NCBI RefSeq assembly: GCF_045037415.1
Contig: NZ_CP173438.1
DNA length: 64,000 nt
Strand: one strand, 5' to 3'
DNA from: Escherichia coli
GTDB lineage: Bacteria > Pseudomonadota > Gammaproteobacteria > Enterobacterales > Enterobacteriaceae
Part shown: positions 19,901-22,900 of the stretch, one piece after another
Numbering within the stretch: position 1 is the first letter of the stretch
Layout of the letters: each line of letters begins with the position of its first letter
Program-made: the position numbers

Positions 19901-22900
19901 GCGCTGGGGTAAACCGCGCAAGTGCCTGATGCGCTTCGCTTATCAGGCCTACGCGCCCCTGCAATATAGTGAATTTGCGATGATTTGTCGGCCGGAAAAG
20001 GCGTTTACGCCGCATCCGGCACGAACAGTGCACTTATCTACCCTTCGATTTCAAATACATCGCTTTATGGCTGGTTAATCGGTAAAAGTTGCACATTTTG
20101 ATAGCGAGAAGAGCTGTCTTTATGAATTCCGAAAAGCGCCCTTCTACCCTCTATAACCATTCTTTTTTACCTGTATTGGCCGCAACATACCTCACCCACG
20201 AAGTGGTTGTAGCAATTCGTGGGCTAAAGGTCCGCATTATATGAAACGGGAGGGCGGTAGCATTTCTGATATTACATGCCTCAATTTTGCTGAACTATTG
20301 GCTATCCTGGACCTCAAAAATCTGGTCATAAGATAGATTTTTTAAGGGAATACGGAGTAAAGGTGTGGAAAACTAATTAATAGGTTTGTCTTAATGCTTC
20401 AGAAGATTGGATACATGGAAGAAGATAATATTATAGAGAAAAAACCATGGCGTGGGATCCCACCTGAATACACGGATAGATGGAGGGAAATTTATAACAA
20501 CGCTGCTCCCGAAGAAGGGATGCATTTATCAGATGCTTGTCCAGTATGTGGTGATACGGAATTATATCGCTATTATTCTCTGTTAAAAACGCAACCACGC
20601 TTATTAGGAGGGATTATGTATAAAGGACCTGGAAGTTATTGGGAATGGTGTGGGTCTTGTCGTTCCTATGAACATATGTCAGGCTATGTACCAATATCGT
20701 GGGTTGTGGAGTTATCAGGAATAGATCATTCAAAATTAACGGCCATTCCAGATATGATTGATATTGCAAGACATAAAAATCATTACTTCTCTTAAATATT
20801 ATCTAATTAGTTTTCCCGGACAGGGCAAGTTGGCGAAAATAGTGAGGAGCATCACGTTTTCCATCCTGACTGACACGCCTACTGGTGATTAAAATCAAAC
20901 CTATGGAATGACGAAAAAGATGGAAAGGAAAAGCATATCAAGTAATCAGTCAGGAAGATATTCACAACAATCACCTGAATCAGTAGATCGAATGAAGGAT
21001 CACTTGTCACATAATATAATTGTCGATATAGATCTTAATTCACCAGGAGTTGTTACTAAACTCGATTTATTATTAAGAAAAAATAAAATATCAAAAACAT
21101 GTCTCTGCGGGATGTTTCCAGTATCTGCCCTGAACAGAAAGACGTTACCAGTATACTTGTCGGGCTATGGGCTTTAGATTTTTTATAATCATCACCAAAC
21201 ATATATGACAAAATAAAAACAAATGAATTTCTTCTCTCAAACAGTGATATTAAAACAATATCAACAGGATTAGTTGATATAATACGGCATTCTAATTTTG
21301 AAGCTTCAGAAGATGATAATGCAATAGAGTACCATTATGCTGCATGTTTGAGGCTTTATAGATTGCTTGGTGATGAAGCAGAGGATATATTGGTTGAGGA
21401 ATTATTACAACATCCAACAATAACCATATTAAGGGCAATCGGTTTTTTAGTTGGACATGAGATAAAATGAACCATTAATAAAAATACATTTTGTATACTT
21501 AATGAAATCTCTGAAGCATATTCCGAGCAATTATCTATTGTCGCAAAAGACGTATTAATTGAAGATGTTGCGCGAGTTAATGCAATAAATCAATTTCTAT
21601 AAATTTACGATATTTATTAGATAATTATGCCGAGTATTCAATTTGGAGATGATCAGGCAGACTATCCGTTTTTATCGGAGGGAGTCATCTGGCTAAGGTT
21701 GATGTGATATGTCCGTTTTATCGTCAAGGTTAAACGGAATATAAGAAATGACCACCTCGCTTCAGTCCTTATAGAGAGCGACTGTCGTAACCTTCTCCCA
21801 AGTTTAAAGAGAACCAGATATGAAAACTTATCATCTAAGTTCAGCAAACAGAAGTGCAGAACATTATATAATGTTCTCATATGGTGTATCATTACGACTA
21901 TCTAATTACCTTTTTAACAGTAAACCGGTTGCAAGAGATTTTTTTAAACATTTAAAAGGAACTACGCAGCGAGGTTTAACAGATAAGCATTTAGACAATT
22001 TAGATTACTTCAAGGGCTTAGGAGCTTATCACATTGTATCTAAACGCTTCGTCGAAGCAATGAAATCATATTTAAAGGAAGATGTAACTTTTCATGCAAT
22101 GCAAGTCTCAGGAAGGAATACTTCTCACGACTTATACCTTTTACAAGTCAATAAAACTTTGCCAATAATTAAAGAAACATCTTTCGATTTAAACAATGAT
22201 CGTGTATTTTCGCCACCCATTTTCAAAAAAAATCATGACATATCATTTCTAATAGCCAGAGAAGAGAATGTCTTAATGAATCATATTGTCATCGTCAGCG
22301 ATGAATTTGTTTCTTTGTGTGCACGACATCAATTAAAAATAAACTTCCGACAAACACTTACGGAATAAATTAAACTTAAGACATCCATCAATATTATTGT
22401 TAGTATACATTCGATCTCAGCGTATTTATTAACAAAAACGACAGGAAATATTCATATGAAAAAAGTTTATTTTGTTCATCGTGATAAGAATGCAATTGAA
22501 CGTCAAAGTGACGGTGTAGAATTTTGTTTCATCCCTGAGTTCAATGACGGAAGAATTTATTTCTATTGTCATGAATATGATATATTTTGGCGTTCAATCA
22601 AGGATGCTGGTGACTATGCCTGGTGCTGTAATTTCCATCTAAAGGGAATTATACGTCCGGCAACTCTTATTGAGATATCAAATTCCGATTTAATATCTTA
22701 TATTGACTCTATTAAAGAATATGAAATAGAGAACAGTAAACTCATAAACATTAACTATATTCATTTGAATTATGATTTTTTAAATATTCATCAAAATACC
22801 TAAAATAGAGGAACTCATATTATCAGAAATGCCCCCTAATCACCTCAATGATCCCCGTCGTCGATACCGACGGCGTGCGGGGAAAGTAGACCACCTCACA

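Follow-up and report, generated by a model that had tools for sequence, protein, structure and literature searches.

The 64,000-nucleotide (nt) stretch of Escherichia coli DNA analysed here (contig NZ_CP173438.1, assembly GCF_045037415.1; hereafter the window) carries an AT-rich islet of small genes between a glycosyltransferase gene and a gene for a TagD-like enzyme, and it is the origin and role of this islet that we address. Positions 19900 to 22900 of the window are 100% identical to E. coli chromosomes that include SK1144, JJ1887, and O25b:H4-ST131 MB1341 (ST, sequence type). The annotated order in SK1144 is flgM, flgN, a gene for a hypothetical protein, the glycosyltransferase gene, three further genes for hypothetical proteins, the cytidylyltransferase (TagD-like) gene, fliJ, fliI, and fliH. 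The locus is the lateral-flagellar Flag-2 system, and the islet falls within the interval lfgN-lfiJ, named variable region 1 (VR1) by De Maayer et al. (2020, PMC6993521). In that paper, VR1 is described as a hotspot of horizontally acquired cargo with deviant G+C content, mostly flagellin-modification genes, and one E. fergusonii strain is reported to have a VgrG/Rhs/Imm26 insert in it. The islet has the features of such cargo: it is non-core, lies between lfgN and lfiJ, varies among strains, and deviates in G+C content.

An earlier note on this DNA had described a low-G+C interval at 20040 to 22820 with a pair of repetitive extragenic palindromic (REP) elements on one side, and measurement bears this out. 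The G+C fraction is 0.30 to 0.42 in all 400-nt segments from 20000 to 22999, against 0.50 to 0.62 on both sides, and the islet averages 34.4% against 52.3% for the whole window. At third codon positions (GC3), the open reading frames (ORFs) of the islet have 0.25 to 0.31, compared with 0.65 to 0.67 in the flanking glycosyltransferase and TagD genes. Comparison with the empty site of E. coli ATCC 8739 sets the limits of the insert at 20026 to 22826, close to those first proposed. The REP pair (19945 to 20026, no strand assigned) lies directly 3' of the glycosyltransferase stop codon and marks the left edge of the insertion site. In Rfam, it matches the REP-derived naRNA4 and ES036 below threshold, and thousands of E. 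coli records match this short stretch at 80 to 90% identity. The pair is also kept in strains with an empty site; in ATCC 8739, the 117-bp spacer between the glycosyltransferase and TagD genes contains the REP pair only.

All four small ORFs listed in the earlier note exist at the lengths given there: 20394 to 20795 (133 amino acids [aa]), 20908 to 21177 (89 aa), 21820 to 22368 (182 aa), and 22456 to 22803 (115 aa). Every ORF of at least 89 aa is on the + strand. Three same-strand ORFs of at least 115 aa arose in 0 of 2,000 Markov simulations of the islet, and the 89-aa ORF is within chance expectation (P = 0.28). Because the 89-aa ORF proved to be the 5' fragment of a pseudogene, the content is three intact same-strand genes (ORF133, ORF182, and ORF115) and one pseudogene, and not four genes plus a remnant. 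Searches of the islet products against NCBIfam, PADLOC, and PHROGs gave nothing informative (no PADLOC or PHROG match at E ≤ 1), only the flanking TagD gene and, weakly, a FliB-like lysine methylase gene being named, and Pfam was equally uninformative for the three intact ORFs, the reconstructed pseudogene, and the 89-aa ORF. These family searches revealed no flagellar, glycosylation, or chaperone domain in the islet proteins, in agreement with what had been noticed by eye. Genes for a toxin, Rhs, VgrG, PAAR, or an integrase are absent from 20026 to 22826, as are phage genes, and the Rfam scan returned only the REP matches.

The pseudogene (20908 to 21602, + strand) comprises the 89-aa ORF and the broken frames that follow it. 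Based on DNA alignment with two E. fergusonii loci, the ancestral gene had at least about 205 codons; the homologous part spans 20983 to 21602, with the frame running from about 20983 to a TAA at 21600 to 21602. The E. coli copy has three lesions, namely a -1 frameshift at 21084/21085 (loss of one base in an A-run), a TAA at 21186 to 21188 where E. fergusonii has AAA, and a TGA at 21468 to 21470 where E. fergusonii has GGA. The E. fergusonii copy reads through all three and bears a +1 frameshift of its own; therefore, the gene died independently in the two species. In the 89-aa ORF, the 5' part of the gene runs on into out-of-frame sequence, and the homology to E. fergusonii starts inside this ORF, at a VDR motif. 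The decayed gene that had been placed at 21180 to 21660 (about 480 bp) is thus real but larger, taking in the 89-aa ORF. For the reconstructed 206-aa product, we found no family, PDB sequence, or plasmid relatives, and no intact copy was present in any fetched locus. A tblastn search against plasmids matched only the E. coli locus on CP054241.1 (pBone7_3, 834 kb; L023), a record labelled as a plasmid that carries the chromosomal Flag-2 locus with the islet and probably represents a piece of the chromosome. Two single-base gaps set it apart from the window, and at least one of them restores the frame at the pseudogene's A-run; both stop codons remain, and the gaps look like homopolymer sequencing errors.

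ORF182 (21820 to 22368, + strand, 182 aa) is an orphan with no adjacent toxin gene. A word-indexed search retrieved Escherichia copies only. When 1.8 billion representative sequences were scanned with phmmer, 41 proteins of about 180 to 200 aa were recovered at 25 to 32% identity (E values of 7e-13 to 8e-4). Pfam Imm11 (PF07791) matched 13 of 34 aligned family members at E ≤ 1e-3 (best, 1.4e-7) and 16 of the 34 at E ≤ 0.1, and ORF182 thus belongs to the Imm11 superfamily transitively, via relatives that match the hidden Markov model. The ORF182 profile found nothing among PDB sequences. Structure prediction, which the earlier note had proposed, yielded a confident AlphaFold model (predicted local distance difference test score, 93; predicted template modelling score, 0.88), and the modelled fold is shared with MXAN_0049. 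Experiments have established the latter as the immunity protein of MXAN_0050, a PAAR-associated nuclease toxin of Myxococcus xanthus that a type VI secretion system (T6SS) delivers (PDB 6a4c). The closest remote relative of ORF182, P0057, starts by an ATGA overlap on the stop codon of a toxin gene whose product terminates with an Rhs-associated core (TIGR03696, E = 1.4e-22) and, after it, an AHH HNH/EndoVII nuclease domain (PF14412, E = 1.7e-15). Given the relatives that match Imm11, the link to MXAN_0049, and the toxin-gene context of P0057, we read ORF182 as a putative divergent Imm11-type immunity protein from a family that partners with Rhs nucleases, and we predict that it neutralises an Rhs/PAAR-delivered HNH-type (AHH) nuclease. 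Another protein, P0086 (858 aa), matches ORF182 in five separate stretches and may be a tandem fusion of Imm11-like domains.

ORF115 (22456 to 22803, + strand, 115 aa) belongs to an unnamed, well-conserved family of small proteins. The family alignment has 18 invariant columns, including the motifs ERQSDGV and RPAT, and no fold match was found in the PDB. Its neighbours in the AlphaFold Database, uncharacterised proteins, come from Proteus (64% identity), Streptococcus gordonii (52%), and Corynebacterium. The family spans Gram-negative and Gram-positive phyla at unusually high identity, and in S. gordonii A0A139NAQ2 the domain occurs in fusion with a protein called CbrC-like colicin E2 tolerance protein. 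Relatives linked to Rhs genes occur in two independent contexts. At two loci (L010 and L011), a 156-aa ORF is followed, after 4 bp, by a 61%-identical homologue. The ORF contains GYVGNPAEYVDPLGL, the motif ending the Rhs core, and then about 120 residues of an unnamed C-terminal domain; the pair is an orphan Rhs tip plus a putative immunity gene. At two others (L026 and L027), the order is an Rhs gene with a barnase-like tip, Barstar, an ORF115 homologue, and a second Rhs gene. A further relative (L028) is found in a run of six small unannotated genes on the same strand. We infer that ORF115 is an immunity protein linked to Rhs toxins.

ORF133 (20394 to 20795, + strand, 133 aa; start at 20415 and 126 aa in the annotation of the Prokaryotic Genome Annotation Pipeline) is a Cys4 zinc-ribbon protein of an unnamed family. 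It is the ORF in which two CxxC pairs had been noticed, and both pairs (C49/C52 and C86/C89) are invariant across its relatives, as are the family motifs CPxC...WCxxC, GSYWEWC, and EHM. It had no Pfam, NCBIfam, PADLOC, or PHROG match, and a scan of the genome collection for relatives found only Superficieibacter and a weak match in Omnitrophota. One metagenome relative follows a gene for a 713-aa unannotated protein. Position directly downstream of a toxin-domain gene was seen for relatives of ORF182 and ORF115 only, and not for ORF133; the window itself is without a toxin. An immunity role for ORF133 would follow from its position alone.

Where these genes come from is indicated by the same Flag-2 site of E. 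fergusonii CP070951. The site has, in order, vgrG, a DcrB-domain gene, a gene for a 102-aa protein, a PAAR/DUF6531/RHS gene, a gene for a 166-aa protein, an ISAs1 (H-repeat) transposase fragment, the pseudogene, ORF182, ORF115, a DUF4259 gene, a 60-aa fragment, and TagD. The RHS gene ends in DPIGL...PLGL and then a tip with a PGHHDP motif; it is called as two overlapping ORFs of 587 and 794 aa (L008 3133 to 7222) and is probably frameshifted. Positions 20983 to 22817 of the window are 92.7% identical to E. fergusonii over 1,838 nt. The islet genes are therefore physically continuous with a toxin locus in a related genome, and from the order vgrG-rhs ... ORF182-ORF115, the E. coli islet would thus be what remains, at the distal end, of an Rhs island that has lost its weapon. 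A batch Pfam search of the neighbours at related loci found only DUF4259, AHH, and a weak DUF4347; neither the 166-aa protein nor the toxin tips of Rhs in L010 and E. fergusonii could be named.

The left part of the islet has a different counterpart. Positions 19400 to 20797, comprising the 3' end of the glycosyltransferase gene, the REP pair, the segment that precedes ORF133, and ORF133 itself, are continuous with E. albertii at 87% identity. The E. albertii VR1 (L013 to L015, 10001 to 13893) consists of seven small same-strand genes. The first encodes an orthologue of ORF133 (84% identical) and is followed by an LprI lysozyme-inhibitor-family gene and by genes for proteins of 157, 166, 213, 125 (DUF4259), and 111 aa. 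Three of the proteins have signal peptides and there is no toxin gene; the array looks like a collection of periplasmic and cytoplasmic immunity genes.

The flanks formed by the glycosyltransferase, TagD, and FliJ genes are present in 1,279 of 5,426 complete E. coli genomes. Among these 1,279 Flag-2-positive genomes, 407 have the islet at an identity of at least 99%, including ST131 strains such as JJ1887, and it is intact in the annotated examples. In one genome, that of E. coli R32_14_1F, ORF182-ORF115 is present at 93% identity, surrounded by ISAs1 copies together with GNAT and DUF4259 genes. Of the other genomes, about 870 in number, most have flanks at about 92% identity and no islet, and those sampled have either the 117-bp empty site or another low-G+C insert. 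The comparison across Flag-2-positive genomes suggested by the earlier note thus reveals a strain-variable islet that most E. coli with these flanks lack. ORF182 and ORF115 occur once per E. coli genome, always at the VR1 site, and no second copies or paralogues were found in E. coli. Insertion sequences (IS) have entered the islet in places: IS1 breaks ORF133 in strains E24 and E25, and IS2 lies just upstream of ORF182 in TUM11352.

Across species, segments of the islet are found with different partners (E. albertii, E. fergusonii, and the metagenome Flag-2 contig L012, in which the equivalent of position 20264 runs straight into an ORF115 homologue). The VR1 of R32_14_1F (L031 5818 to 11810) contains four intact or broken ISAs1 (H-repeat) transposase genes, one partial transposase gene, and the GNAT acetyltransferase gene together with additional small genes upstream of ORF182-ORF115-DUF4259. 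Rearrangements of VR1 are probably driven by ISAs1 elements. At the same site, E. coli 09-02E (L021 1639 to 2992) has a different 1.5-kb insert of 34% G+C, in which the gene for a 273-aa protein (weak DUF4347 match, FSHGG motif) overlaps that for a 179-aa protein with an N-terminal membrane segment; the two may be an effector-immunity pair.

The segment at the left of the islet (20026 to 20393, + strand), which we term the leader, has no convincing gene, only one 51-aa ORF, and showed no family match; its promoter scan was at chance level. Homology to it is continuous with E. albertii and also extends to 20264 in L012, to 20135 in 09-02E, and to 20317 in R32_14_1F, and the leader is the older, shared entry part of the variable region. 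The core of the islet is bracketed by a 15-nt inverted repeat with one mismatch (about 30 nt if extended with gaps). Its left arm (20260 to 20274, no strand assigned) meets the end of the L012 homology, and its right arm (22818 to 22832, likewise unstranded) covers the last TagD codons and the stop codon and overlaps the right junction of the islet. About 1.45 such repeats are expected by chance, and the extended repeat has a local score of 28, the highest among shuffles being 27. The repeat may be a coincidence or a recombination footprint, and its significance is doubtful. The idea that the leader is a relic of an inverted TagD copy was rejected, as only the 15 to 30 nt of the inverted repeat align and there is no similarity at the protein level.

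Elsewhere in the window, upstream of the glycosyltransferase gene, positions 16456 to 17427 match the flagellin lysine-N-methylase FliB below threshold (E = 1e-9; 38 bits, with the cutoff at 85), which fits the LafV protein that has been described for Flag-2. Reduced G+C fractions were also seen in the 1-kb bins at 3001 to 4000 (0.41), 29001 to 31000 (0.47), and 47001 to 48000 (0.44).

We conclude that the islet is probably (about 0.72) a poly-immunity, or orphan immunity, array, the decaying tail of a T6SS vgrG-rhs effector island that was once present in the Flag-2 VR1 of Escherichia. The genes are tandem, co-oriented, and putatively of immunity type, and they stand without toxins. Two of the three intact genes (ORF182 and ORF115) are from families tied to Rhs toxins, the counterpart in E. 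fergusonii is the tail of a vgrG-rhs island, and the islet is missing from most E. coli that have the flanks. These results support the suggestion of the earlier note that the genes resemble orphan immunity or small accessory arrays rather than flagellar cargo. Support for an immunity role of the individual members is good for ORF182 and contextual for ORF115; ORF133 and the pseudogene have no informative relatives, and both would formerly have been immunity genes too. The cassettes would since have been reshuffled between Escherichia lineages. Each small cytoplasmic protein would act on an Rhs effector that a competitor injects, binding and blocking its C-terminal toxin domain, the target being an AHH/HNH-type nuclease for ORF182 and an as yet unnamed Rhs C-terminal domain for ORF115. 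Kept without their toxins, such genes would let the cell resist attack without bearing the cost of a weapon, and the E. coli copies would presumably be expressed and still protective. We consider the origin and the protein families well supported and present-day protection by the E. coli copies plausible.

Several observations weigh against this reading. Even at E ≤ 10, Pfam Imm11 gives no match to ORF182 itself, and neither ORF133 nor the pseudogene has a link to a toxin. The ORF115 copies of Stenotrophomonas and Corynebacterium are alone among housekeeping genes with no toxin nearby, as are the ORF133 relatives of Superficieibacter and one on a metagenome contig. Promoter and terminator scans of the islet remained at chance level, with no promoter signal above it, and the Flag-2 system of the ST131 strain EC958 was silent under laboratory conditions. 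Between E. coli and E. fergusonii, the ratio of nonsynonymous to synonymous substitution rates (dN/dS) is 0.34 for ORF182 and 0.62 for ORF115, compared with 0.01 to 0.07 for the flanking TagD, FliJ, FliI, and FliH; for ORF133 against E. albertii it is 0.24. Counted per site, ORF182 (0.066) and ORF115 (0.078) have diverged between E. coli and E. fergusonii as much as the adjacent pseudogene (0.079) and spacers (0.060 and 0.080). Current function is in doubt because recent constraint is weak.

The main alternative is that the islet is now an inert hitchhiking remnant, a possibility that the earlier note had also raised. Such a remnant would share the origin in the tail of an Rhs island, and its E. 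coli copies would be inactive and merely not yet broken, so that the alternative concerns present function only. It agrees with the one array gene already dead, with the IS1 and IS2 insertions tolerated in some strains, with ORFs that have diverged about as fast as the pseudogene, and with an islet lost from, or never present in, most Flag-2-positive E. coli. The changes in ORF115 (7 synonymous and 20 nonsynonymous) are near the neutral expectation, and the neutral probability of encountering no stop codon is 0.12 to 0.38 per ORF. However, 15 of 36 changes in ORF182 are synonymous, against about 7.5 expected under neutrality. Moreover, ORF182 and ORF115 have neither a stop nor an indel in three lineages, and 927 nt of adjacent noncoding DNA have three indel columns; the neutral probability of no indel is 0.055, and the joint probability of open, indel-free frames is about 0.003 by hand multiplication of these values. 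Also telling against inertness is that 407 E. coli copies, intact where annotated, are at least 99% identical. As a point against the immunity reading, survival of the open frames is no more than weakly improbable under neutrality. On balance, we hold an inert remnant to be a serious possibility, although one that falls well short of even odds. Synonymous divergence (dS) adds to the history of the array: between E. coli and E. fergusonii it is 0.12 to 0.15 for the islet genes (21820 to 22803 against L008 9365 to 10348) and 0.24 to 0.36 for the flanking flagellar genes, which, unless composition bias is at work, hints at an exchange of cassettes between the species later than the divergence of the flanks.

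Two other explanations were considered. The genes might be flagellar accessories that act with the glycosyltransferase, the lysine methylase, and the TagD-like enzyme in modification of the lateral flagellin, as could be expected from their orientation, which is that of the glycosyltransferase, and from their position in VR1, whose cargo is mostly concerned with flagellin glycosylation and methylation (PMC6993521). We regard this as scarcely credible, since the islet proteins lack glycosylation, flagellar, and chaperone domains, their GC3 is 0.25 to 0.30 against 0.65 to 0.67 in the flanking genes, most E. coli have the same glycosyltransferase and TagD genes without the islet, and relatives are found both in Gram-positive bacteria and in nonflagellar Rhs loci. 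A hotspot position and small AT-rich genes are also typical of type II toxin-antitoxin pairs, anti-phage defence systems, and prophage moron clusters, and restriction-modification genes are known elsewhere in Flag-2 loci (PMC6993521). A module of this kind is very unlikely here, as PADLOC, PHROG, and NCBIfam gave no matches that would place the genes among known anti-phage defence or phage genes, the islet has no toxin-like partner, integrase, or phage gene, and there is positive evidence of a relationship to immunity families.

A bolder and more tentative proposal can also be made, which we think rather less probable than its failure. ORF115 could represent a new cross-phylum immunity family (52 to 64% identity between Escherichia, Proteus, and Streptococcus, with a fold not in the PDB), whose cognate toxin would be an Rhs C-terminal domain of the L010 type, so far undescribed; ORF133 could likewise be new, a zinc-ribbon protein serving in immunity or regulation. 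On this view, the islet would be a lineage-specific shield against the Rhs toxins of gut competitors such as E. fergusonii, in a lineage that includes the pandemic ST131.

The analysis offers a likely origin and role for three hypothetical proteins in about 400 complete E. coli genomes, including well-known ST131 strains. Two toxin-immunity pairs are proposed, ORF182 with an Rhs-AHH nuclease and ORF115 with an unnamed Rhs C-terminal domain; the latter, if true, would name an immunity family and a toxin domain, both new. Should the genes still be protective, orphan immunity could aid the gut competitiveness of the lineage. No paper in the literature collection searched mentions the protein accessions of the islet. 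New here are the reading of hypothetical VR1 genes of the ST131-containing lineage as a relic of an Rhs island, with the E. coli islet tied to the Rhs island of E. fergusonii, the model-based structural link between ORF182 and MXAN_0049, and the putative assignment, by context, of the unnamed ORF115 family to Rhs loci. The advance is incremental, because the concept of orphan and poly-immunity is already established.

It is well established that orphan immunity genes and poly-immunity clusters occur downstream of polymorphic toxins such as Rhs. Examples are the orphan rhs-CT/rhsI modules of Salmonella and E. coli, which lie downstream of rhs genes, and the poly-immunity cluster in the vgrG6 Rhs module of Stenotrophomonas (PMC7043789; bioRxiv 10.64898/2026.07.13.738213). 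Like these clusters, the islet consists of tandem, co-oriented, AT-rich small genes, has relatives that directly follow Rhs toxin tips, corresponds in a sister species to the tail of a vgrG-rhs island, and is mosaic in content between strains. Unlike them, the E. coli islet has no rhs gene or toxin tip, is stranded in a flagellar cluster, and has one dead member, and its protective effect is a prediction. ORF182 differs from the pair MXAN_0049/MXAN_0050 in having just 9% identity to the immunity protein and no adjacent toxin; the toxin of its relatives is an Rhs-AHH nuclease, which need not be of the MXAN_0050 type. Its relatives match the curated family Pfam Imm11 and its length is similar (about 180 to 200 aa in the family), whereas ORF182 itself is a divergent branch reached only transitively. 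Finally, the islet resembles the VR1 cargo of PMC6993521 in its lfgN-lfiJ position, low G+C content, and hypothetical proteins. In the accessible part of that catalogue, a third of the cargo genes are hypothetical or encode domains of unknown function and are given no immunity reading; for the islet, by contrast, we propose descent from the immunity genes of an Rhs island.

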